Positions 2,888 to 21,018 are shown, numbered from the stretch's first letter. The stretch: DNA of 32,000 bases from Delftia acidovorans NBRC 14950 (GCF_001598795.1 NZ_BCZP01000038.1:9635-41634); one strand, 5' to 3'. Notes: generated by a model from the letters alone, not told the origin. Made by a program: numbers and translations.

Positions 2888-4196
2888 ACCGATTGCCTTT
2901 GGCATCCTCGTAGACGGGCTTGCCGCCTGACATTCCAACCTGGCGCGACATTCCTGGCGGCACCTGCCCGCCACCCTGCCCCGGCTGCTGCACAAACAGC
3001 CCGCTCTGCCGATTGAACACCGTGGATGGGGTGTTGTAGGCCCGCTGGGACACCGGATCGATCTGCTGCCCCCCAGGCACCACCAGATACGGATCGGCCT
3101 GCGGCGTGCCGCCCTCGATATCCCGCATGTACTGCACCAGGCTGCGGCGCTTGGTCGGATCTTGTTCTCCGGCCACCTGGTTGCGCGCGGCCTCCACAAG
3201 CCGGTTGGTGCGGTTGCTGTATCCCTGCGTCTCGCGGTCCATGTCCAGGCGCTGCTGGGTCAGACCGGCCTGCATGCCGGCGCGCTGGTTCTGTCCCTGC
3301 TGCTCCATGGCTGCGCGCACGAGGGTATTGCCCTGGCGCATGCCCTCTGCCTGCAGGCCTGGGGCGGCCTGCTGCAGCGCCTGGTCCGTGGCCAGCATGG
3401 CCTGGTACTTCTGCACATCCGGGCTGTTCTCCGCGCCACGGCCGCCGAAGCGCCGCGTGTTGGTGATGGAGCTGGCCGACACCTCGGCATTGCGCAGCGC
3501 GTTGCGCGAGGCCCAGTCGTTGCCGCTGTGGGCAATGGCGGCCTGCACCAGGGGGTTGCCCAGCGAGGTTGACAGGCCGGGGGCGATGCCCTGCATCTGC
3601 GACCCTGGCACAGCACCAGCAGGCATCGAGTTCATGGTGCCGCCAGGAGGTTTGCCGTTGATGGTGATGTCGCCGCTGATACCAGCGGGGCCGCTGTAGC
3701 TATTGCCATCGCGCGTGATGTTGGCCGGGCCAGGAGGTGCGGCTGGTCCAGGCATGGGCGCAGCTGCGGCGCCAGGGGAGCCCGGAGCGCCGGGTGCGCT
3801 CGCTTGCTGCTCCATCGCGGCGGCTACCAGCGGATTGGATTGGCGCGTGATCGGGCTGGCAGGTGCTGGGCTCTGGGCACCAGCAGCAGTCGCCAGCGCA
3901 GCGCCACCACCCACCACGGGCGCATAGGGCGCTGCGGCCTGGGCGGCCTGGCCCAGCCCCGACATGGCCGGCTGCGATGCACCGAAGGCCCGGGAGATGA
4001 GGCCGGTACCGCGCAACGCGGCGCCAGGGATACCGCCCGCACTGGGCAGCGCGGCCAGGTTGCGGCCGAAGTCGTTGTTCAGGGGATTGCTCTGGGAGCC
4101 GTCGGCAGCGGGCGCCTGCGGATTGCCGCCCACCGGGATCTGGTTGATCAGCGCGTCACGCCGCTGGGCTGCTTCGAGAAGGGGATTCGTGGCCAT
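2874..4196 (-). CDS. Low-complexity A/G/P/Q-rich virion-associated protein (440 aa), possibly an internal or ejection protein
   Basis: Long ORF co-oriented with the head genes and last gene of the structural run. Composition-biased sequence with a Q-rich helical segment. Function inferred from position only. Confidence 0.6.
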   Translation of the reverse strand: MATNPLLEAAQRRDALINQIPVGGNPQAPAADGSQSNPLNNDFGRNLAALPSAGGIPGAALRGTGLISRAFGASQPAMSGLGQAAQAAAPYAPVVGGGAALATAAGAQSPAPASPITRQSNPLVAAAMEQQASAPGAPGSPGAAAAPMPGPAAPPGPANITRDGNSYSGPAGISGDITINGKPPGGTMNSMPAGAVPGSQMQGIAPGLSTSLGNPLVQAAIAHSGNDWASRNALRNAEVSASSITNTRRFGGRGAENSPDVQKYQAMLATDQALQQAAPGLQAEGMRQGNTLVRAAMEQQGQNQRAGMQAGLTQQRLDMDRETQGYSNRTNRLVEAARNQVAGEQDPTKRRSLVQYMRDIEGGTPQADPYLVVPGGQQIDPVSQRAYNTPSTVFNRQSGLFVQQPGQGGGQVPPGMSRQVGMSGGKPVYEDAKGNRFIGE

Positions 4197-5979: not shown

Positions 5980-6339
5980 TCAGGTGCGCGCTTCGTAGAC
6001 GCAGGTCTTGGAAGCCAGGACGGCCGCCAGAGTGGCGTTCTGCGACACGCGGAAGCCGCGTTCATCGACCGTGATGCCGTTGGCAGCGTCCAGGGTGCGG
6101 ACGCCATCGGCACCGGTCTTGAGGCACGAGCCAGCGGCCATGCCCTCGAACCACTCGATCTGCACGCGGTCGGTGACGTTGATCCAGCGGACTTGGCTGG
6201 GCTTGAAGCCGGTCTCGACGCGGGTGGTATCCCCTGCGACGATGGCGGTGGCGTCGTAGACCACCTTGCCCTGGGCGGAACTCTGGGAGTCCTGCTTGTC
6301 GGTCTTGGTGCGGGTTTGGCCCGCGGTGTTGTCGGCCAT
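5980..6339 (-). CDS. Small head protein directly downstream of the major capsid gene, possible decoration or cement protein (119 aa)
   Basis: GGAGA SD. Position immediately after the capsid gene. The functional guess rests on synteny only. Confidence 0.55.
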   Translation of the reverse strand: MADNTAGQTRTKTDKQDSQSSAQGKVVYDATAIVAGDTTRVETGFKPSQVRWINVTDRVQIEWFEGMAAGSCLKTGADGVRTLDAANGITVDERGFRVSQNATLAAVLASKTCVYEART

Positions 6340-6400
6340 GATGGGTTCTCCGTGGGAGTTGAGGTTCAGAGTGGAGGGAGGGCCGAAGCCCTCCCCGGCC

Positions 6401-7438
6401 TTACAGCGCGGTCACCCCGGCTTCGGCCACCGCCATCCAGCCCTCGTTGAGCATGGTGCAGGCCATGTAGAACTTGGCGCCAACGTAGCCGCGCTGGCCC
6501 AGCGGATCGCTCTTGTCCTTCACCCCGGGCGGGATGTAGGTCGGGTCGATGGAGTCCGAACCACGCAGTGCCAGCTGGCCCCAGGCGTCTTCGCCGACCA
6601 TGATGAACGGGTAGACGTCCACGTTGGTCGCGCCCGTCAGGCCGGTGCTGCCGATAGCTGCGCCTGCGCCGGCATAGGGCGCCAGTTCCGCACTGGTGAT
6701 GAAGCGGAAGTTCTCGCAGGAACCGATTTCCTGGGCGTGCACAGGCTTGCGGTTGCCGTAGGCGCTGACGTGCACGAAGCCCTGCAGGTCACGGATATCG
6801 GCCTCGGCATCCGTGTGCACGAAGACCAGGTAGCTGGCTTCCACGGGCTTTGTGGCGATCATTGCCGAGGGCGACAGGATGCCTGTGATGCGCTTGGCGT
6901 GGTTGGCCTGCAGATTGCGGCTGATCTTGCGCAGCAGGTTCAGGCTGATCTTCGCGTTCACAGCAGCGCGGCTGGCACCGCCACCGGCATAGAACACGTT
7001 GGTACAAGCCTTGAGCACGCCGTAGCGGATCATCTCGCGGACCAGGGCAATGCGCTCGCCGCACTGCTTCTTCATCTCGGCGGGCACGTCGTCCTCGTAC
7101 GTGTCCACCGTCTGGTCGGTGAGCTGGTAGAGGCAGCCGTATTGCTTGATGGTGACCTGGATGTCCTGTGGGACCAGCGTGTCTGCGCCAGGCGTGACGC
7201 CTTCGGTCAGCTCGTGGGCCACCGGGTCCGCCTTGGGCCGGTTGCGGGTGTTCCAGTCCGTGTTCGCCGCACCCCAAGGGAGGTAGCGGCGGTGCACGAT
7301 GGTCTTGCCCTGGTTCTTGGGAAGCGCGCGCTGCTGGCCGGTGATGCCCAGCACTTCGCTCGCCACGGCGTGGGCGAGGATATCGCCCTTGATCTTGCCG
7401 ATCCGCGGCGCCGGGTTGCCGCTTTCGTATTGAGCCAT
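6401..7438 (-). CDS. Major capsid protein, HK97-fold, N4-gp56-like family
   Basis: 345 aa with AAGGAGA SD. Recognisable conserved stretches (LPKNQGKTIVHRRY, SDPLGQRGYVGAKF) and position after the scaffold gene. Confidence 0.88.
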   Translation of the reverse strand: MAQYESGNPAPRIGKIKGDILAHAVASEVLGITGQQRALPKNQGKTIVHRRYLPWGAANTDWNTRNRPKADPVAHELTEGVTPGADTLVPQDIQVTIKQYGCLYQLTDQTVDTYEDDVPAEMKKQCGERIALVREMIRYGVLKACTNVFYAGGGASRAAVNAKISLNLLRKISRNLQANHAKRITGILSPSAMIATKPVEASYLVFVHTDAEADIRDLQGFVHVSAYGNRKPVHAQEIGSCENFRFITSAELAPYAGAGAAIGSTGLTGATNVDVYPFIMVGEDAWGQLALRGSDSIDPTYIPPGVKDKSDPLGQRGYVGAKFYMACTMLNEGWMAVAEAGVTAL

Positions 7439-8726: not shown

Positions 8727-10961
8727 TCAGCCCCGCGCGCCGTCAGCGGCCGGCGTCTCGATGCCCTGGCGCACGCCCAGCAGCGGGCTGTCGGGGCGCA
8801 GCGGCGTCAGCGGGTCGGTGTTGTTGGGCACGGCGCCAGGGTCGGGCTGCTGCTGGGGCGTGATCCAGCCCGAGGGCTGCGGAACGATGGGCGCAGCATC
8901 CTGGTCGACATAGCCGCCCGAGCGCAGCAGCCCGTCGGCGACTGGCGCCGCGCCGGGGTTCAAGGCGAGGACTTGGGCGGCCTGGGTGCCGCTGTACAAG
9001 GTGTCCACGTTCACGCCCACGGTCTGTGCACGCGCCCTGCCCGCCTCTGCATCGGTCTTGCCGGCCTGAGCCTCCAGCAGCTTGGCCTTGGCCTGCAGCG
9101 TCGGGTCCTGGCCCTGCTGGGCGCGCTGAGCCTTCTGCTCGTCCGTGTACTGGAAGTTGGTGGGGTCCAGGCGCTGGCCCTTGCACAGCTCGGCCGCCAG
9201 CTTCGCCGGGTCCAGCTCGTAGACGGGATTGGCCGACACCTGCAGCAGCGTCATCAGGAACTGCTGCTGGGCGTCGCGCTCCACCAGAGCCGAGCTGGCG
9301 CGCACGTCGATCTGGAAGTCGCCCTTGATGCTCTCGTCGTCAGAGTAGGTCATCATCCAGTCGAAGTACCGCTGGATGTGGGGCCGCGTCATGTAGTCGT
9401 CGAACCGCTTGGCCAGGCGCCGCAGCACGCTGGTGGCGTTGTTGTTCTGCATCTGCATGCCGCCCAGGGTGTTGGGCGCATCGCCGCGGATGCCCTGCAG
9501 CATGGCCGGCATGCCCGTGGTGTCCTCGGCCATCTTCAGGGCGAACTGAATGGTGTTCATCAGCGTGACCTGGGCGCTGGGCACTGTGAAGGCGTTGAAT
9601 GCTCCGCGCACATCCGAAACGTCCGCATTCGCTTCGGCACGCCAGATCTTCCCCGGCCGCAGACTCCAGACGCCATCTTCCGGTGTCACACCGTTCCCGA
9701 TCACCACCTGAGGCGCTGCTGACAGGCCGTTGTTGTCCATCATGGCGCGGGCTGCACCATTGAGCATGCGCTGTGCCGTGCGGACCTGCCGGCTGATGCC
9801 GACACCCCAGGGCATGCCAGGGCGGCGCTGCCAGGCCAGCACGTCATAGGGGAACTCGCCATCGTCCTGGGGACTGAGCACGACCTTGACCAAGCGGTCG
9901 TTGATCATCACCGCCATGGTGGGCACGCGGTCCTCGTCGCCCTCTTCCATCTCCACCCCCAGGCGCGCCAGGTGCTCGCGTGCGCAGTGGCCGTAGAAGA
10001 TCCACATCTCAAACTCGTTCTCGCCCGGCCGGTAGACGGCTTCCGTGCCCTCGCGGGTGCGGGCCGGGCCTTCGCGCAGCACGGCCAGCAGTTCGGCAGT
10101 CTCGTAGCTGGGGTCGGCCAGCATCTCCTTGATCTGGCGCGGGCCGATGTTCTCGCGCTCCCACGTGTAGCTGCCGTTGTGGATGTTCTCCCCGCAGGAC
10201 GGGTCCGGGAAGAAGTTCCAGGCGTCAATGCGCTTGGAGCCGGGTTTGATCTCATCGAACTTGACGAACTGAGTGGTCTGCGTCACGGGATCCTTGATGG
10301 CCATCCGGCTGGTGCGCATCACGGGATAGGGTCCCTTGAAGACACCGGAGCCGATTCGCGCCGAGTCCTCGATCAGCTGCCGCATTTCCCCGTGCCAGTT
10401 GCTCTCGACCAGCGAATCCTCGATCGCGCGCTGCATACCCTTGGCGGCTTCGGCTGCATTGCGGATCTGCTCCTGGACGAATTCCTCCACGGTCTTCTGC
10501 TTGTAGATCCCGCCCATGGCGTCCATCAGCCGCTGGCGCAATGCTGGGCTGAGCGTCGGCAAAGGCGTGGCCTTGATCTCCCAGGCCCGATCATCCGTGG
10601 GCAGCAGCATGTCCGCCACGCGGGCGCTGGCCGCATCCGTGTAGGGGCGCGTGATGTTAAGGAACACCACCGACCGGGCCGGGCCCTGCTGCCTGGTCTG
10701 CCCACCGATGACGGCCGCCTTCCTGCTGCGGTACAGCTGGTTGGCGTTCTGGAAATTGCGGTTGGCGTCGTCGATGCCCTGGTAGTGCTCCTCGTCCTCG
10801 GTCCACTCCTCCTCGATGCCCGAGCCGGCACGGCCGGCAATGGCCTCGCGGCGCTTGGACAGGAGCGTCAGGACGAACTCGGCGCGCAGGTCGCGCTGGG
10901 GCTCGCCGCTGTCGTCGTGCTGCTGGGCCAGCAGGCCCCCATGGTTGGTGGTGGCTTGCAT
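8727..10961 (-). CDS. Portal protein (744 aa)
   Basis: Large ORF immediately downstream of TerL (TerL stop and portal start are 1 nt apart). Size and position are typical of podovirus-type portals. Confidence 0.85.
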   Translation of the reverse strand: MQATTNHGGLLAQQHDDSGEPQRDLRAEFVLTLLSKRREAIAGRAGSGIEEEWTEDEEHYQGIDDANRNFQNANQLYRSRKAAVIGGQTRQQGPARSVVFLNITRPYTDAASARVADMLLPTDDRAWEIKATPLPTLSPALRQRLMDAMGGIYKQKTVEEFVQEQIRNAAEAAKGMQRAIEDSLVESNWHGEMRQLIEDSARIGSGVFKGPYPVMRTSRMAIKDPVTQTTQFVKFDEIKPGSKRIDAWNFFPDPSCGENIHNGSYTWERENIGPRQIKEMLADPSYETAELLAVLREGPARTREGTEAVYRPGENEFEMWIFYGHCAREHLARLGVEMEEGDEDRVPTMAVMINDRLVKVVLSPQDDGEFPYDVLAWQRRPGMPWGVGISRQVRTAQRMLNGAARAMMDNNGLSAAPQVVIGNGVTPEDGVWSLRPGKIWRAEANADVSDVRGAFNAFTVPSAQVTLMNTIQFALKMAEDTTGMPAMLQGIRGDAPNTLGGMQMQNNNATSVLRRLAKRFDDYMTRPHIQRYFDWMMTYSDDESIKGDFQIDVRASSALVERDAQQQFLMTLLQVSANPVYELDPAKLAAELCKGQRLDPTNFQYTDEQKAQRAQQGQDPTLQAKAKLLEAQAGKTDAEAGRARAQTVGVNVDTLYSGTQAAQVLALNPGAAPVADGLLRSGGYVDQDAAPIVPQPSGWITPQQQPDPGAVPNNTDPLTPLRPDSPLLGVRQGIETPAADGARG

Positions 10962-10962
10962 G

Positions 10963-12267
10963 TCAGTACCCTATCTCGTTGTCCAGTGGCTGCCAGCCGC
11001 CGCCCCGAGGAGCGACGGGCCGCTGCTGCTGTGAGCGCAGCATGTGCTCGGCCGATTGAGCGATGTAGCGGAAGTTGTCGGCGCCGTGGCTGTACTGGTC
11101 GTGCAGCGGTCCCATGGCCTCGCCGGTCTTGGTGCTGACGTGGCGCTGATACCGCTTCAGGCATTCCAGCAGGCGCGCCGTCTTGGCGGCGTCGAAGTAG
11201 CAGCGCGGGAACAGCATGCGGGCGGCCTTGATGCCCTCTTCCACATCCAGCGGGGCCAAGCACAAGACCTGCCGGCGCCCCAGCTCGCGCAGCAGCATCT
11301 CTGCGTTCTTGCCGGTCTGCGGGTTCTTGGTCTTGCCGTCGTGCGGCAGGTAGTCGATGCCCCAGCGATACGGGCGCTTCTCCAGTTGGGTCACATACCA
11401 GTCATAGGTGTGGTGGCTGTCTTCCAGGTAGTCGATGACGCGCACGTCCTGCGGGCCGACCTGGACCATGGTGATGGTCATGGCGTCGTTCCAGCCCAGG
11501 TCCCAGACCGTGTGCACGGGCAGGCGCGGGTCGTAGGGGACGCGGCAGGCCCGGCCGTCGGCATAAAGGTGCTCCACCTCGTGGCGGTAGATGGCGCCGG
11601 CGGCCACCTTGCGGGCCTTACCCTCCCAGATGTGCTCGTAGTCGTCCTTGAGCATGGAGCGCTTAGCCTTCTGGCGCTCGTCCTCCAGCACGACTGGAAA
11701 CCAGGGGTTGTCGCGCCAGTTGATCTGGCAGACCCACGTGTCCGGGCTGGGCGTGGCGATGAACCGCTGGTAGGTCTCGTCCGTCTCCATGTCCGGGTTC
11801 AGGGTCAGCCAGATCTCGGAGCCTTCCTTGCGGATGGTCGGGATCAGCACGTCCCAGGACTTCTTGCTGACGCCGTGGGCCTCTTCCACCCAGACGATGT
11901 CCACGCCCTCGAAGGACTTGATGGTGTCCACCGTGTGGGACTGCAGGCCCGAGAACAGGAACAGCGAGCCGTTGATGCCCCGGATCTCGGAGTCCAGCAC
12001 CTCGAAGAAGGCTTCCAGGCCCAGGCGCGAGATGGTGTCCTTCAGCAGGCGATGCACCGAGTCCTTCATGGACCGCTGGATCTCGCGGGCGCACAGCACG
12101 CGCAGCGGCCGGTCGGCGGCCATGGCCAGGAGGACAGCAGCGACAGCCCAGGACTTGCCGCCGCCACGGCCACCGTGCATGACCTTGTAGCGCCTGGGCG
12201 AGAACAGGGGCTGCAGCTTCTCGGCCAGCTGCAGCTTGGTGAATGGGAGCTCGGCAGGCGCGTTCAT
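10963..12267 (-). CDS. terL: Terminase large subunit (PBSX/Terminase_3-like)
   Basis: 434 aa with Walker A HGGRGGGKSW and VWVEEA Walker B-like motif. ATGA overlap with terS. Confidence 0.93.
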   Translation of the reverse strand: MNAPAELPFTKLQLAEKLQPLFSPRRYKVMHGGRGGGKSWAVAAVLLAMAADRPLRVLCAREIQRSMKDSVHRLLKDTISRLGLEAFFEVLDSEIRGINGSLFLFSGLQSHTVDTIKSFEGVDIVWVEEAHGVSKKSWDVLIPTIRKEGSEIWLTLNPDMETDETYQRFIATPSPDTWVCQINWRDNPWFPVVLEDERQKAKRSMLKDDYEHIWEGKARKVAAGAIYRHEVEHLYADGRACRVPYDPRLPVHTVWDLGWNDAMTITMVQVGPQDVRVIDYLEDSHHTYDWYVTQLEKRPYRWGIDYLPHDGKTKNPQTGKNAEMLLRELGRRQVLCLAPLDVEEGIKAARMLFPRCYFDAAKTARLLECLKRYQRHVSTKTGEAMGPLHDQYSHGADNFRYIAQSAEHMLRSQQQRPVAPRGGGWQPLDNEIGY

Positions 12268-12962
12268 GCGTCGTCGTCCTCCCGCGCAGCAGGCCGCACG
12301 AACTCGACAGCGATGCGGGCTACGCCGCCCTCCCCTGGCCCTGTGCCCACGGGATCGACCTTGTCCATGCCGAAGGCGGTTCGCTCCATGTCCACAACGA
12401 TGCGCAGGCTCTCGGCCAGCACCTTCAGGGTCTTGGAGCGCTCAGGCAGGCTGATGACGGCCTCCAGCAGCTCGCCGTAGCGGTCGCGCCCGGGCTTTTC
12501 GCCAGGCGTCACCACGGCCGCAGCCAGCTCCTGCAGCTTGGCCAGCGTGGCCGGGTCGGTCTGCTGCTCCAACTCGTCCATGAGCCTGTTGGTGAGCTCG
12601 CGAACACGGCGCGCGTCCTTGCGATGGCCCAGCCGAACGTCAGCCACAGCCTGGGCATTGCCGTCGATGACAGCCCGTTCCCGGACTTTGGTATCCGCGG
12701 ATACCTGGCTGGATACCGCCGCCCTGGATACCAGCGCATCAGCCTTGGCCTGGATCTTCTGGGACAGGTCGCGCTCCCAGCCATCCCGCTTGGCGCGCTT
12801 GTTGATGGCGCCGTGGGTGATGCCGTTCTCGTCGGCGATCTGGCGAAGTGTCTTGATGCCGGCCCGGTAGTCCAGCTCTATGCGCTCCCAGTCAGGGGAG
12901 CGGGGGCCGGGGGCTGCGCCCCCTGCGCTGGGGGCTTGGTCGGGATGCGGTGAAGATGCCAT
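12264..12962 (-). CDS. terS: Terminase small subunit
   Basis: 232 aa. N-terminal HTH-like IELDYRAGIKTLRQIADENGITHGAINKRAKRDGWERD, typical of small terminases. Directly upstream of terL. Confidence 0.8.
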   Translation of the reverse strand: MASSPHPDQAPSAGGAAPGPRSPDWERIELDYRAGIKTLRQIADENGITHGAINKRAKRDGWERDLSQKIQAKADALVSRAAVSSQVSADTKVRERAVIDGNAQAVADVRLGHRKDARRVRELTNRLMDELEQQTDPATLAKLQELAAAVVTPGEKPGRDRYGELLEAVISLPERSKTLKVLAESLRIVVDMERTAFGMDKVDPVGTGPGEGGVARIAVEFVRPAAREDDDA

Positions 12963-16226: not shown

Positions 16227-17621
16227 TCACTCGAAGTCGGCCGAACGGCCAGGGGTGGTGCTCGGCTTCTCGCCGTTCCAGTTCTCGAAGCGGACCAGGT
16301 GGCCCGTGTACTTGAGGTTCAGATCGCCCGTTGCGCCGCCGCGCTGCTTGGCCACACGCAGGCAGGCGTAGTACCGCCAGGCGTCGCCCAGGCTGGGCTT
16401 CAGGTGGATGGGGCGGTGCGGAAAAATGATGATGTCGGCGTCCTGCTCGACGTCGCCACACTCGCGCAGGTCGGACATCATTGGCATCTGGTCCACGCGC
16501 TTTTCGACCTCGCGGTTCAGCTGGACCAGCAGCAGCACGGTGATGCCCAGCTCCTTGGCCAGCTTCTTCAGGTTGCGAGAGATCTCCCCGAGTTGCGCCG
16601 TCCGGTTGTCCTTCGGGTTCGTGGGCTCCATCAGGCCCAGGTAGTCCACGATCAGCAGCCGCAGGCCGTGCCTGCGCTTCAGGGCGCGGGCCTTGGTGCG
16701 CAGCGTGTTGATGTTCAAGCCGGTGCGATCGTTGACGTAGAACGGCAGCTTTCGAATACGCTCGGCCGCAGCGGTCACAGCATGGAAGTCGTTGTCCAGC
16801 ATGCGCCCCTTGGGCCTGCGGATCAGGCTCAGGGAGACCTCGGACTCCATTGCGACCTGGCGCTCGTACAGCGATGCCCGCGACATTTCCAGCGAGAACA
16901 TGGCCACGGTCTGCCCCAGCTTGGCTGCGTGCATGCCGATGGTGGCCGCCAGCGCAGTCTTGCCCATCGATGGCCGCGCGCCGATCACGACGTAGTCGCC
17001 AGGCCGTGTCCCGCCATCGAGGATGTGGTCCAGATCGCGGAGGCCCGTTGGGAGGAACGGCTCCTCGATGCCGACACAGCGCTCGTCCAGCTCGCTCAGG
17101 AACTCGACCATGCCGGCGTCGGAGCTGACCCACTCGTCTCCTGGGCCGTCCTGCACCAGGCCTGCCAGCTGCGCCGACACCTGCTCGATCCGGTCACCGA
17201 TGGGCACAGCATGGTCGCGCGCCAGCTCGCGGGCCTTGTCCACCACGCCCAGCAGTTGGCGGCTCAGCGCACGCTCCCGGACGATTTCGGCGTAGCGTCG
17301 GGCCGAGGAGCCCGAGACGGAGCCGGCCTCCGTCAGGTCGTGCAGGTACTTCAGCTCCACCGCGCAGCGCAGCTGCTCGTGCACGGTCAGCGGGTCCACA
17401 GCCTTGGCGGCCACGGCCAGCGCGGAGATGGCGCCGTAGATCGCGCCGTGGGTCTCGTCGGCGAAGTCCGCAGGCTGCAGGATGTCGCCCACCACGTCGT
17501 ACAGGGCGCTGCTCAGCAGCAGGGAGCCCAGGACAGCGTGCTCAGCCTCGTAGCTGGCCAGCGGCACCGCGACGGCGCCGTCGAAATCTTCGTCCAGGGG
17601 GGGCATGGAGCGGGCGTTCAT
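16227..17621 (-). CDS. dnaB: Replicative DNA helicase DnaB
   Basis: 464 aa from the ATG at 17621 (ATGA overlap with the upstream gene). Walker A GARPSMGKTALA, a DnaB N-terminal domain (AEHAVLGSLLL) and LIVDYLGLM. Confidence 0.93.
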   Translation of the reverse strand: MNARSMPPLDEDFDGAVAVPLASYEAEHAVLGSLLLSSALYDVVGDILQPADFADETHGAIYGAISALAVAAKAVDPLTVHEQLRCAVELKYLHDLTEAGSVSGSSARRYAEIVRERALSRQLLGVVDKARELARDHAVPIGDRIEQVSAQLAGLVQDGPGDEWVSSDAGMVEFLSELDERCVGIEEPFLPTGLRDLDHILDGGTRPGDYVVIGARPSMGKTALAATIGMHAAKLGQTVAMFSLEMSRASLYERQVAMESEVSLSLIRRPKGRMLDNDFHAVTAAAERIRKLPFYVNDRTGLNINTLRTKARALKRRHGLRLLIVDYLGLMEPTNPKDNRTAQLGEISRNLKKLAKELGITVLLLVQLNREVEKRVDQMPMMSDLRECGDVEQDADIIIFPHRPIHLKPSLGDAWRYYACLRVAKQRGGATGDLNLKYTGHLVRFENWNGEKPSTTPGRSADFE

Positions 17622-18577
17622 GCTGTGGTCCTCGTTTTTTCGATGACGTGCTTCATGCCCTTTTCGCTGAGCAGGAAGTCGAGATCGCACTGCCAGCTGG
17701 CGTGCTCTCCGCTGCGGTAGCCGCGGCCCATAAGGAAGTCGTTGTCGCGGGCACGGCCGAAGTACTCGCGGAACCAGGTCACAGCCTGCTCAGCGGTCTC
17801 CGCGCGGGGCGTGTTGTCGGATTTCTTGCTTGTCAGGACGAACTTCCAGAGCTTGCCCACGGCCTTGCGGCGGCCATCGTTGAGCAGGCGAACCTTCGGC
17901 AGTTCGGGCAGGACTTCGTGGTAGAGGTCAACCAGGTCCTGAACCGGGCAGTTCGGCAGTCCAGGCTTGCCAGGTGCGGTTTCGCCGGGCTGGTCGTCGG
18001 CGCTGCCGACAGAGCCGTTAGGCTCTTTCTTTTCCTGTTCCTGTTCCTGTTCCTGTTCCTGTTCCTGTTCCTGATTAGGCATAGCCTTCGGGGAAGCCTT
18101 TCCGAAAGTCTCATCGAAAGCCTTCCCGAAAGCCTCTCCGAGCGCATGAACACTGGCTCTCAGGTGCTCCAGGGCCTCGCGCTTCAGGTCGCATTCGGGG
18201 ATCAGGTCGAATTCAGCAGCCCAGCTCTTGACCACGTTGGGGGACTCGGGCCGGTTGTGCTTGATGGCGTTCGGAACCCACATGACGCGGGCTTTGAAGT
18301 CGGCTTTCACCATCCCTTGTTGGAAGACTTCCCGGAAGGCTTTGTCAAAGGCTTCCAGATCCCAATCCAGTTCCTCGGCCATAGCAGCACGGCCAGCGCG
18401 GAACAAACCGGGAATGGGGCCTGTGTGGGGGCCGGTGATCAGAAAGAGCCACAGGCCCTGCCCGCAGGGCGGCATCGCTGACAGGCGGCGGAATTTCTCG
18501 TCGCCCCAGGTGCGCACCTCGACCTTGCGGTAGCGACTTGGCGCGCGGGCGGCTTTGGGGATATCGGTATCGATCAC
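17618..18577 (-). CDS. Putative replication initiator or helicase-loading protein (319 aa) with an (EQ)6 linker
   Basis: GTG start in GTGA overlap with the upstream small ORF. Lies directly upstream of dnaB. The C-terminal segment (WFREYFGRARDNDFLMGR...WQCDLDFLL) resembles phage replication proteins. Confidence 0.6.
   Translation of the reverse strand: MIDTDIPKAARAPSRYRKVEVRTWGDEKFRRLSAMPPCGQGLWLFLITGPHTGPIPGLFRAGRAAMAEELDWDLEAFDKAFREVFQQGMVKADFKARVMWVPNAIKHNRPESPNVVKSWAAEFDLIPECDLKREALEHLRASVHALGEAFGKAFDETFGKASPKAMPNQEQEQEQEQEQEQEKKEPNGSVGSADDQPGETAPGKPGLPNCPVQDLVDLYHEVLPELPKVRLLNDGRRKAVGKLWKFVLTSKKSDNTPRAETAEQAVTWFREYFGRARDNDFLMGRGYRSGEHASWQCDLDFLLSEKGMKHVIEKTRTTA
18034..18073. repeat. Hexanucleotide microsatellite (CCTGTT) x6.7
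   Basis: Perfect tandem CCTGTT units inside the replication gene. They encode NQEQEQEQEQEQEQE on the minus strand. Confidence 0.95.
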
Positions 18578-18723
18578 TGCGCGCGCCCTTCATAGGCGGC
18601 AGCGAAGGCCTGGCCAGCGGGTGTCGTGGCTGGCCAAGGGCATGCCTGTTCCAGGGGCTGGCCAGCAGCGCGCGCGGCAGCCGCCAGGGCCTTGATGCGG
18701 TCGAGGCTGACGACTTCAGACAT
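18574..18723 (-). CDS. Small hypothetical protein (49 aa)
   Basis: ATG at 18723 with GAGGAGGG SD. ATGTCTGA overlap with the upstream stop. It is the internal start of the track ORF 18574-18816. Confidence 0.4.
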   Translation of the reverse strand: MSEVVSLDRIKALAAAARAAGQPLEQACPWPATTPAGQAFAAAYEGRAQ

Positions 18724-19249
18724 TGCCGCCCTCCTCGCCCCGGGGAGCCGATGCCGCGCTGAATGGATTGCTGGGCACGCGGGCCATCGTGATACTGGAC
18801 CTATGCCATTGCTCAACAGCCCAGCAGTTCAGGATCTGACGAATCACCGCGCCGCGGCTGGCGTCGGGGTCCACGCTCTCGTTCAGGTTGCGAACGTAGG
18901 CCTCGATCACGTCCAGCGTGAACGTGCGCACCGAAGCCCGCACCTCGACATAGTCGCTCTCGACGTCCCGGCCCGGGCGCAGGCGGACCTGCACGACTTC
19001 GAAGGGGTTCTCGGGCACCAGGCCCACCTTCATCTTCGATTCGTTCCAGCAGCGGTTGGCCCAGTCGTCCAGGACCTCGGTGATGATCTGGTTGCGGCTG
19101 GTGCGCGGGTCGGCATAGCGCAGGCGGCTGTGCAGTTCGGCCTCCAGCATGTTGGCCGTGAAGCTGTGCAGGTTCACGCGCATGTGCGTGAAGTCCAGCT
19201 CTGGATTACGGCTGCGCGCGTACTGCGGCATGGGGTAGTTCTGGTTCAT
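18716..19249 (-). CDS. Internally duplicated protein (177 aa), possibly a tandem ribbon-helix-helix DNA-binding protein
   Basis: ATG at 19249. Two roughly 70-aa repeats: RYADPRTSRNQIITEVLDDWANRCW ... GLVPENPFEV versus SVDPDASRGAVIRQILNCWAVEQW ... ARVPSNPFSA. First minus-strand gene after cro. Confidence 0.6.
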   Translation of the reverse strand: MNQNYPMPQYARSRNPELDFTHMRVNLHSFTANMLEAELHSRLRYADPRTSRNQIITEVLDDWANRCWNESKMKVGLVPENPFEVVQVRLRPGRDVESDYVEVRASVRTFTLDVIEAYVRNLNESVDPDASRGAVIRQILNCWAVEQWHRSSITMARVPSNPFSAASAPRGEEGGNV

Positions 19250-19435
19250 GTCTTTGTCCTGGCTGTGGTGGTCGTGGAGGACGAGGCCCTGGACGACGAA
19301 TGGGACGTCAGCCGCAGGGAGCTGGATGCGTTGCTGTATGGGCTGGCGCAGCGGCGGGCCGGCAGCGAAGGGGTGCCCGCCACCTCTCGGGGCAGAATGG
19401 AAGTTCTTACACAACCATTCCCGAGAGGGGCGGAC

Positions 19436-19942
19436 ATGAACATTCCAGAGTTACTGGTTGCCGCGAAAGGCGCATACGAGCTTGTGGCCGTGGGCATCGC
19501 AGCACGCGACGATGCGAAGGTCAGCGAAGCAATGTCGGAGCTTCGGCAGAAGCTGTGGGATGCCTCAGCCATGGGCTTTTCCCAGATGGAGAAGCTGCAC
19601 GGCCTCGAATTCGAGGCGCAGGCACTCCGAATGAAGTTGGCCAATGCGGAAAGAGGTCTTGAAGACCTGAAACGCCAGATCGCTGATGACGCCAAGTACG
19701 ACTTGGCCGAAATACCAATTGGCAAATGGGTGCAGGTTCGTATAGAGGACGCGGAGAAGCCGGTGGAGCGCCGCCCCAACTTTTGTAGCTCGTGCCACAG
19801 CGCGGGCCGCAAAACGCCACTTCAGTACAAGGAGGCGACGGTAAGTGAGCCGAGCCGCCTCTACTGCCCTGTGGAGAGCAAGCACTCGATTTACTTTGGA
19901 GAACGGCTTCCGCAGGCCTCGACTCAGCCACTTCTCTACTGA
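19436..19942 (+). CDS. Hypothetical coiled-coil protein with a C-terminal Cys/His cluster (168 aa), encoded antisense to the early-right operon
   Basis: ATG at 19436 with GAGAGGGG SD. One counted line gives about 52% GC. Helical N-terminal region, then CSSCH-(x21)-CPVESKH. No plausible minus-strand gene occupies 19250-19973. Confidence 0.6.
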   Translation: MNIPELLVAAKGAYELVAVGIAARDDAKVSEAMSELRQKLWDASAMGFSQMEKLHGLEFEAQALRMKLANAERGLEDLKRQIADDAKYDLAEIPIGKWVQVRIEDAEKPVERRPNFCSSCHSAGRKTPLQYKEATVSEPSRLYCPVESKHSIYFGERLPQASTQPLLY

Positions 19943-19973
19943 AGCGCAGGCCGTTAGCATCTGGCGCCACGCG

Positions 19974-20237
19974 TCATGCATGGCCCGCCTCCTGAGTGCC
20001 TGGCTGGGGGGCGGGTACTGGCAGGGGCTCTCGCCCGTAGACCTGATCAAGGCTCACCACAAGCCCGCGACCAAGGGAGAAATCAATCAGCCGAAGCGCG
20101 ACATGCACGGGCATGGACTGCTGCCCGGATTCGTAGTTGGCGATGTTTCCTTGGCTGCATTCGATGCCAACGCCAAGCTCTTTTTGGGTCACCCCCAGGA
20201 GCGACCGGATGGGTTTGAGTGTCTGCATGACGCTCAT
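19974..20237 (-). CDS. cro: Cro-like HTH (XRE family) repressor; the true start is probably the ATG at 20228
   Basis: HTH LGVTQKELGVGIECSQGNIANYESG. The long track ORF 19974-20657 is antisense to cI over its first 140 codons. The first ATG (20237) lies inside the predicted -10 element. Confidence 0.8.
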   Translation of the reverse strand: MSVMQTLKPIRSLLGVTQKELGVGIECSQGNIANYESGQQSMPVHVALRLIDFSLGRGLVVSLDQVYGREPLPVPAPQPGTQEAGHA

Positions 20238-20301
20238 TATCAGCGCCGCTGGTTTGACAGTCAACCAGCGGCGCTGATCGATCAAAACCAGCGCGCCTGA
20301 T
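20236..20301. promoter_or_regulatory. OR-like operator cluster with divergent promoters for cro (minus) and cI (plus)
   Basis: 15-bp palindromic sites ATCAGCGCCGCTGGT (20239-20253), ACCAGCGGCGCTGAT (20264-20278) and degenerate ACCAGCGCGCCTGAT (20287-20301). On the minus strand, TTGACT (20259-20264) -17 nt- GATAAT (20236-20241). Confidence 0.75.
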
Positions 20302-20310
20302 ACTTGAGCC

Positions 20311-21018
20311 ATGAGTAGCAAGAAAGCCATAGTCACGGACGAGCACCGCGAAGAGGCGCGGGCCCTGCGTGAAATCTGGAACAGGGTCAAGCCCAGAAAC
20401 CAGAAGGAGTTCGGCGCAGAGTTCGGGATCGGCGGGCAGACCGCCGTCAGCAACTTCCTGAGCGGCACATCGGCCCTCAGCCTGAAAGCGGCGGCGGGCT
20501 TCGCTGCTGGCTTGGGCTGCCGCATCGAGGACTTCAGCCCCCGTCTGGCAGCCCCCGCAGCACAGATCGCCGAGCTGACGCCTCCCCCACCGCCATCAAG
20601 CGACGAATACACGTCAGTTCGATATGCAAACGTGCGCTTCGCAAATGGTTCGGGCAAGGTGGCCTACGTCGCTGCCGACAAGCCCGCCCTGGTGTTCCGC
20701 ACCGACTTCCTGAAGAGAGCGGGTGTCTCCCAGGCAAATGCCGTCGTGGTGGATGCCAAGGGACACAGCAACGAGCCGAAGATTCCCGACGGCTCTATCG
20801 TCTTGGTGGACCGAGGAGACAAAGAGCGTCTGAACGGAGACTTCTACGCGTTCCGTGCTGACGGCGAATTGCTAATCAAGCGCCTACAGAACGTTCCCGG
20901 GGCAGGCGTCCTTGCGATTGCTGAAAACCCGAGCTTCAAACCCAAGCAGGTCATGTACCAAGAAGGCGATGATTTCGAGGTAATTGGGCGGGCTGTCTGG
21001 GCCGGCATCATGCTCTGA
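20311..21018 (+). CDS. cI: CI-like repressor (N-terminal XRE HTH, C-terminal S24 LexA-like peptidase)
   Basis: 235 aa. HTH QKEFGAEFGIGGQTAVSNFLSG. S24 motifs GHSNEP (Ser153) and LIKRL (Lys190). Divergent from cro. No SD before the ATG. Confidence 0.9.
   Translation: MSSKKAIVTDEHREEARALREIWNRVKPRNQKEFGAEFGIGGQTAVSNFLSGTSALSLKAAAGFAAGLGCRIEDFSPRLAAPAAQIAELTPPPPPSSDEYTSVRYANVRFANGSGKVAYVAADKPALVFRTDFLKRAGVSQANAVVVDAKGHSNEPKIPDGSIVLVDRGDKERLNGDFYAFRADGELLIKRLQNVPGAGVLAIAENPSFKPKQVMYQEGDDFEVIGRAVWAGIML

Follow-up and report, generated by a model that had tools for sequence, protein, structure and literature searches.

A Rip1-family gene embedded antisense beside cro in a Delftia acidovorans prophage region and the conserved hairpin that precedes it

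The immunity region and its plus-strand gene

What does a lone plus-strand gene encode when it is lodged within the minus-strand early operon of a prophage, and what could such a placement mean for its expression? The question is raised by an open reading frame (ORF) at positions 19436-19942 of a 32,000-nucleotide stretch of Delftia acidovorans NBRC 14950 (NZ_BCZP01000038.1:9635-41634), hereafter the window, from the first letter of which all positions are counted. The window holds a lambdoid immunity region. The cro-like gene (19974-20228, minus strand) encodes an 84 aa helix-turn-helix (HTH) protein that matches Pfam HTH_31 (E=3.6e-6) as well as PHROG families of transcriptional repressors and regulators, and homologs of this gene occupy the same position at other loci. 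A PR-like promoter, TTGACT-17-GATAAT (20236-20264, minus strand, 10/12 matches), is the only promoter-like site found in a sigma-70 scan of 18600-20400; no sigma-70-type promoter for the plus-strand gene was recognized in this interval. The -10 hexamer of PR (20241-20236) overlaps an earlier in-frame cro ATG at 20237, and a transcript from there would be leaderless, so that cro most likely starts at ATG 20228. Even from ATG 20228, the cro transcript is probably leaderless or nearly so. On the plus strand, a CI-like repressor gene (20311-21018) encodes a protein with a Peptidase_S24 domain (PF00717, E=2.7e-16; phrog_4, E=4e-37), and its ATG at 20311 follows a GATACT-like -10 so closely that a leader would hardly fit. 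Three 16-nt operator-like repeats are located between cro and cI (20238-20253, 20263-20278 and 20286-20301; TATCAGCGCCGCTGGT, AACCAGCGGCGCTGAT and AACCAGCGCGCCTGAT), two of which form a perfect 16-nt inverted repeat.

After cro, the minus-strand genes follow in the order 177-aa gene, O/DnaD-like replication gene, DnaB, NinB, and then the genes for the small terminase (12264-12962), the large terminase, the portal (8727-10961) and the major head protein. The 177-aa gene (18716-19249, minus strand, GC3 0.87) is the first delayed-early gene and has no family match; its homologs follow the hairpin described below in loci L019, L025, L030, L033 and L060. By eye, its product appears to consist of two tandem ribbon-helix-helix-like units, and at other loci the delayed-early position is occupied by a 68-aa ribbon-helix-helix-like or a 142-aa protein, all candidate regulators. 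Midway through the replication initiator encoded by the O/DnaD-like gene (17618-18577, minus strand), a short tandem repeat in the DNA (about 17990-18040) gives rise to a (Gln-Glu)n run, QEQEQEQEQEQEQE, which may be a linker or an origin-associated repeat.

The ORF at 19436-19942 (168 aa, ATG start, TGA stop) is the sole plus-strand gene within the minus-strand run that follows cro. It is on the same strand as the CI-like gene and has no co-oriented partner gene, in a setting that is that of a prophage (cro/cI, replication, terminase, portal and head genes). An earlier note on this DNA had proposed a 168-aa plus-strand ORF embedded in antisense in the operon that leads from cro to the replication genes, and the ORF proved to be real, as judged from the frame itself, its translation, its relatives and the substitutions among them. 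The features attributed to it were recovered as well: a Shine-Dalgarno (SD) sequence, GAGAGGGG, at 19423-19430, 5 nt before the ATG; a GC content of 57.8%, lower than the 63.6% of the whole window; and a 31-nt spacer (19943-19973) between its stop and the convergent cro stop (19974-19976), with a weak hairpin (z = -2.1) and no terminator. A scan of 18600-20400 on both strands found no terminator-like sites.

The further statement that the gap lacks a credible minus-strand coding sequence stands only as far as coding signatures are concerned: three minus-strand frames (188, 149 and 161 aa) are open there, but they lack a coding signature. In two of them, the GC content by codon position is that of non-coding DNA; the remaining one mirrors the plus-strand gene and runs into cro. 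A PHROGs search with all three gave no matches. When the region was compared with its relatives, substitutions were most frequent at codon position 3, followed by position 1 and then position 2 of the plus frame, a pattern that fits coding on the plus strand.

In the public record, the gene starts at GTG 19274, yielding a 222-aa product. The N-termini of the homologs and the conserved leader show, at the sequence level, that this call is an over-extension and that ATG 19436 is the true start. The same stretch, about 18274-20942 of the window, is also represented by locus L068 (CP066006.1 3405831-3408499), the public record of which places a 106-aa plus-strand ORF (window about 19980-20300) over the minus-strand cro-like HTH gene.

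Relationship of the 168-aa protein to Rip1

Searches of Pfam and NCBIfam with the 168-aa protein (hereafter ORF168) produced nothing meaningful, no PADLOC (2023) model matched it, and tblastn of the ORF against 50,697 GenBank phages gave no match. The link to a characterized protein was found via Foldseek and profile searches. ORF168 falls into phrog_1244 (E=1.4e-11; a family of unknown function in PHROGs), which is also matched by Rip1 of phage HK446 (E=2e-53). A word-indexed search returned four relatives only; an exhaustive profile search collected 294 cluster representatives at E<=1e-3, nearly all of them 140-180 aa long. Compared with 177,635 PDB sequences, a profile of 64 relatives matched 9oox_L, which is Rip1, with E=1.3e-18 (70 bits) over profile positions 3-142 of 159, the next PDB match being at 0.028. 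The hhalign comparison of the family with Rip1 gave a probability of 98.6% (E=7e-16), and a pairwise BLASTP of ORF168 with Rip1 yielded 24% identity over 142 aa (E=6e-4).

The two proteins also agree in their finer features. HK446 Rip1 (gp37, YP_007111990.1) and ORF168, both members of phrog_1244, are of similar length (164 and 168 aa) and share the order of an N-terminal helix, a long helix and a C-terminal Cys-rich domain, along with the motif (Y/F)xCxxC..K..LQY..C. The earlier note had pointed to a C-terminal Cys/His cluster that could bind zinc; this zinc-type cluster is conserved among the 64 relatives, in which C117, C120 and C144 do not vary and the conservation of H150 is 90% or higher, and is a putative metal site. 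The family pattern FCxxC..G.K.PLQ..C.....H aligns with YLCAQCY..VKSILQY..C of Rip1, so the last metal-type ligands differ, being CxxC in HK446 Rip1 and C-x5-H in ORF168. The N-terminus and an ARDDAK motif are conserved across the family as well. This sequence evidence settles the assignment: ORF168 is a Rip1-family protein.

The AlphaFold2 model of ORF168 (pLDDT 82.5; 88.9 with 64 sequences in the alignment) is composed of helices 3-21 and 26-85, followed by a small beta/Cys domain. This agrees with the helical or coiled-coil N-terminal part described in the earlier note. The Foldseek comparison of the models with the PDB, a check already foreseen in the earlier note, gave 9oox_L/M as the sole significant matches (E=1e-3, then 1.8e-4 with the second of two AlphaFold models; probability 1.0), all others scoring 0.64 or worse. 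The 9OOX structure shows HK446 Rip1 in complex with the small terminase of T6. The global TM-score between the ORF168 models and 9oox is modest (0.34-0.49; 0.38-0.49 with the second model), probably due to a differently oriented long helix in the monomer model. A search of the BFVD viral fold library found nothing significant. In a Rip1 protein, an amphipathic helix at the N-terminus is expected to build the pore. Residues 1-24 of ORF168 are predicted to be helical and are hydrophobic (mean hydrophobicity 0.38), with a low hydrophobic moment (0.06-0.20); by this measure, the N-terminal helix is not clearly amphipathic.

Rip1, "ring interacting pore 1", of phage HK446 (PDB 9OOX) is described in the review PMC13434031, which summarizes Patel et al. 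(Nature 2026), as a prophage-encoded single-protein anti-phage defence that is not toxic alone. According to this review, Rip1 oligomerizes around the rings that an invading phage forms from its small terminase or portal, 12 Rip1 copies ringing the 11-mer small terminase, and the resulting membrane pore ends the infection prematurely. Escape mutations map to the portal in Pseudomonas phages and to the small terminase in E. coli phages, and defence was demonstrated experimentally for both the HK446 and the Pseudomonas prophage members (PMC13434031).

Taken together, these comparisons make it probable, at roughly three chances in four, that ORF 19436-19942 is a functional member of the Rip1 family of single-protein prophage anti-phage defences, and they lend support, through homology, to the earlier suggestion of a prophage-encoded defence gene. 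By analogy with HK446 Rip1, the protein would be made in the lysogen, where it would be harmless alone; its C-terminal Cys/His domain would bind the ring-shaped small terminase or portal oligomers of an invader, the N-terminal helices of the assembled ring would form a pore in the inner membrane, and the cell would die or lyse before the invader completes packaging. Because ORF168 is only about 20-24% identical to the characterized Rip1, the specificity of the trigger is not transferable. With this gene, the Rip1 family appears to extend to high-GC prophages at that level of identity (its host has a 64% GC genome of 6.8 Mb, whereas that of HK446 is E. coli), and a predicted mechanism-level function is attached to a gene publicly annotated as an over-long hypothetical protein.

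The leader hairpin and the cargo slot beside cro

The gene is preceded by a conserved leader element (19367-19438, minus strand; covariance model 98.9 bits) that covers about 65 nt before the ATG and is almost identical at loci where the proteins are only about 40% identical. The element is an interrupted 22-bp hairpin, in which 19374-19391 pair with 19420-19436 and 19396-19400 with 19415-19419 around an invariant 14-nt loop (19401-19414); its 3' arm, read on the plus strand, is the SD and ATG of the Rip1-like gene. One copy of the 23-nt core, ATGGRAGYTCYYAYACAACCATT, is present in the window, where the expected number is zero, and the core is also found in 33 IMG/VR and 22 metagenome contigs (55 in total); the L052 metagenome match consists of the core alone and was treated as a chance match. 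At nearly all other loci, an ATG 16 nt past the core marks the exact end of the element. It is absent from INPHARED phages and PLSDB plasmids, and an Rfam scan over 19367-19438 gave no match even at E<=10. At the HK446 locus, the covariance model did not detect it.

The hairpin is supported by covariation. Both-side changes are observed at 10 of the 22 pairs, compared with 4.7 in shuffles, 0 of 500 of which reach 10, and 88-95% of the cells pair in the proposed hairpin, against about 45% in slid controls. The two strands are not equivalent in this respect: 95.0% of the cells pair on the minus (cro-sense) strand, which has 85 wobble and 38 mismatch cells, and 87.9% on the plus (cargo) strand, with 14 and 109, respectively, most of the non-Watson-Crick cells being C.A on the cargo strand and hence G.U on the cro-sense strand. 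The folding energy in the window is -35.9 kcal/mol on the plus and -41.6 kcal/mol on the minus strand, and the cro-sense RNA is the more stable one in 42 of 42 versions of the element (means of -37.6 and -28.8 kcal/mol). Since pairing, wobble asymmetry and stability all favour the cro-sense strand, the structure seems to be selected on the PR transcript. On this transcript, the hairpin follows the antisense of the cargo gene and, at many loci, lies 21-50 nt before the SD of the first delayed-early gene.

Several more familiar readings of the element were considered. An SD-sequestering hairpin in the cargo mRNA is weakened by the same asymmetry, with 109 mismatched cells against 38 and lower stability in all 42 versions. 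For an intrinsic terminator, there is no terminator-like site in 18600-20400 and no conserved U-tract, the tails after the cro-sense hairpin varying from 0 to 4 U after a CC(C) spacer. A nut-type boxA/boxB element of a nutL and nutR pair was rejected because the other early arm has no second copy; a pattern search allowing 3 mismatches and the covariance model both found a single copy in the window. Motifs for sigma-54, ECF, IHF, DnaA-box and LexA, sought by eye in the element, were unconvincing and were dropped, and no protein family common to all element-bearing loci emerged as a candidate to bind the element. The inner inverted repeat has a two-turn spacing similar to that of the CII site of phage 186. 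However, with the 186-CII geometry (-38/-58), transcription would start after the cargo ATG. A fixed AATGG half-site operator is also weakened, by the second copy of the element at locus L059, where the otherwise invariant inner stem AAUGG/CCAUU is replaced by the compensatory GCUGG/CCAGC and the loop is unchanged.

Tandem copies of the element are present at two loci, L059 (8655-8726 and 9171-9242) and L055 (7908-7979 and 8424-8488), each copy immediately preceding an ORF start. In L059, the upstream ORF may be degenerate, since it overlaps an early-sense ORF that is conserved.

What follows the element differs greatly between loci. At least 17 unrelated families of small genes, mostly encoding proteins of 55-105 aa, occur in this position, the Rip1 family being one of them, and the order of element, cargo, convergent cro-like gene and cI-like gene is found at about 35 loci with at least four immunity types. 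Searches of Pfam, PHROG and PADLOC with the other cargo proteins found no function except for one KTSC domain. From the sequence comparison, this arrangement looks like a cargo hotspot bordered by a hairpin, nearly always next to cro/cI. The hotspots of P2/P4-like prophages and the phage "morons" resemble the slot in their fixed position, conserved flanks and many small cargo genes. The present slot belongs to another phage group, and it is bordered by a structured element of 65 nt that stops precisely at the cargo ATG, is tandem where a second copy is present, and is without a described counterpart. The conserved hairpin that marks a hypervariable slot beside cro is the most novel item of the present analysis.

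In the slot, the hairpin module is the upstream border and supplies a ribosome-binding site (RBS) and an ATG to whichever cargo is present. We tentatively entertain a broader reading, less probable than not, in which the 65-nt hairpin is an undescribed cis-acting early-right element, its complement a portable RBS and start codon, and the slot a reservoir of small anti-phage or lysogeny genes. If so, the hairpin would work within the early-right (cro-sense) RNA of a group of uncultured prophages, for example, as a checkpoint for processing, stabilization or termination/antitermination just ahead of the first delayed-early gene. Of the 17 or more families in the slot, nearly all of them without annotation, the Rip1-like one would be the first to which a function can be assigned. 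The genes of the slot are candidates for new defence or lysogeny functions, and ATGGRAGYTCYYAYACAACCATT provides a sequence handle for finding this hypervariable slot full of small unknown genes.

Antisense placement and alternative readings

The arrangement of a Rip1-like gene, convergent cro-like gene and cI-like gene is shared by loci L001, L005, L006, L008, L012, L015, L044 and L065, and by a relative with only 26% identity (L070). In the relatives, the stop of the Rip1-like gene is 1-4 nt from that of the cro-like gene and the cI-like gene is next on its own strand, and this layout is kept although the Cro and CI types differ. Because the stops are 1-31 nt apart and no terminator intervenes, a transcript of the gene must run antisense into cro. 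Conversely, the sequence is consistent with PR transcription having to read antisense through the Rip1-like gene to reach the lytic genes, because all of these are located downstream on the minus strand and no promoter-like site separates the Rip1-like gene from the gene that starts at 19249. In a search for a Rho rut site in the antisense stretch, the C/G ratio was only 1.14, which is not distinctive, and this candidate was rejected.

Antisense placement recurs elsewhere in the family. HK446 rip1, like ORF168 a single prophage-borne gene, runs toward gene N of the PL operon and overlaps its end. Each of the two genes is embedded in antisense immediately behind the leading gene of an early operon, which is N in the PL arm of HK446 and cro in the PR arm here, and the stop of each almost touches that of its convergent neighbour. 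The homologs in Pseudomonas Mu-like phages (D3112 orf25, DMS3, JBD and MP phages) belong to the same family as ORF168 and are likewise on the strand opposite to the surrounding lytic genes. Their location differs, being in the late region between a small-terminase-like gene and terL rather than at the immunity switch; in D3112, orf25 is oriented opposite to its neighbours, between orf24 (small-terminase-like) and terL. Another Rip1 relative converges on a capsid gene. Embedding after N, after cro, between terminase genes and near a capsid gene suggests a general way to keep a weapon on in the lysogen and off in the phage's own growth, and by analogy among these loci, such an "on in lysogen, off in lytic growth" regime is plausible for the gene described here. 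Being located in the cargo slot just downstream of cro and opposite to the PR lytic operon, the gene would be expressed when CI represses PR; after induction, converging PR transcription would damp it, and the terminase and portal rings of the prophage itself would thereby be spared as well. ORF168 thus adds to a family published in 2026 a member for which, given the recurring layout, regulation by mutual exclusion is plausible.

Exclusion genes expressed from the prophage at the immunity region are well known in lambda (rexAB, sieB) and P22 (sieA/sieB). Similar to the Rip1-like gene, these are accessory genes at the immunity region directed against other phages. The rexAB and sie proteins are unrelated to ORF168, and rexAB is co-transcribed with cI, not antisense in the PR operon.

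An alternative that we consider unlikely assigns the gene mainly to an establishment transcript similar to those from lambda PRE and 186 pE: a promoter downstream of cro would fire toward cI, producing RNA antisense to cro and extending into cI. In this case, the ORF would not be a defence gene but a passenger, or else would modulate lysis and lysogeny through transcriptional interference. In lambda (PRE/oop) and in 186 (pE), transcription indeed starts downstream of cro, toward cI, from a CII-activated promoter convergent to pR (PMC6593788). At the present locus, the gene is on the cI strand with cro antisense in between, no terminator precedes cro at a distance of 1-31 nt between the stops, and the inner inverted repeat of the leader is spaced by two turns, as in the 186 CII site. 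Against this reading, the protein is a clear homolog of a demonstrated defence protein, and Rip1 genes are also antisense in late and PL operons, where the logic of establishment fails. Furthermore, the 186-type geometry discussed above misplaces the transcription start beyond the cargo ATG, the compensatory inner repeat in the second L059 copy argues for structure rather than for a fixed protein half-site, and the next early gene, which would be the CII candidate, lacks conservation across the loci. The known systems also differ in that the lambda and 186 promoters make cI mRNA or a small RNA in a CII-dependent manner; here, a protein-coding gene fills the interval and no fitting CII-type site was found at the locus. 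The two readings are not mutually exclusive. The protein can be explained without the earlier proposal of a lysis-lysogeny modulator that acts by transcriptional interference, although this may describe a side effect: because the transcript is antisense to cro, in the geometry of lambda PRE and 186 pE, a contribution to the stability of the switch is possible.

Distinctly improbable is the possibility that the Rip1 fold is kept but serves another job here, such as superinfection exclusion at DNA entry, regulation by a zinc ribbon, or control of the phage's own packaging. The low identity to the characterized Rip1 (20-24%) and the different last metal ligand relative to HK446 Rip1 would be compatible with such a change, and the roughly 294 diverged cluster representatives suggest a functional spread. 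The defence reading is nevertheless favoured by conservation over the full length, with the same motifs and the same size, and by the single-gene prophage setting and antisense placement that ORF168 shares with the validated members. Virtually no weight is left to the notion that the ORF is a chance open frame in a region that is non-coding or coding on the minus strand: although 64% GC DNA gives long ORFs in several frames and the three minus-strand ORFs (149-188 aa) do overlap it, this is refuted by the PHROG family match, the homologs in 294 clusters, the PDB profile match, the confident AlphaFold model and the codon-position pattern of substitutions in the plus frame, along with the lack of coding signatures and family matches in the minus-strand ORFs.

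Two further loci illustrate other surroundings of the family. In Verminephrobacter aporrectodeae (NZ_QZCX01000003.1, locus L007), a Rip1-family gene at 6001-6501 has only a partial leader (36.6 bits) and no cro/cI nearby, and adjoins urease accessory genes and a 368-aa minus-strand ORF; this locus may be a prophage remnant or an island. In Escherichia phage ev099 (L010), a 99%-identical copy of HK446 Rip1 is located at 3073-3339, downstream of an N-like gene, and the public record annotates only an ORF on the opposite strand at this site.
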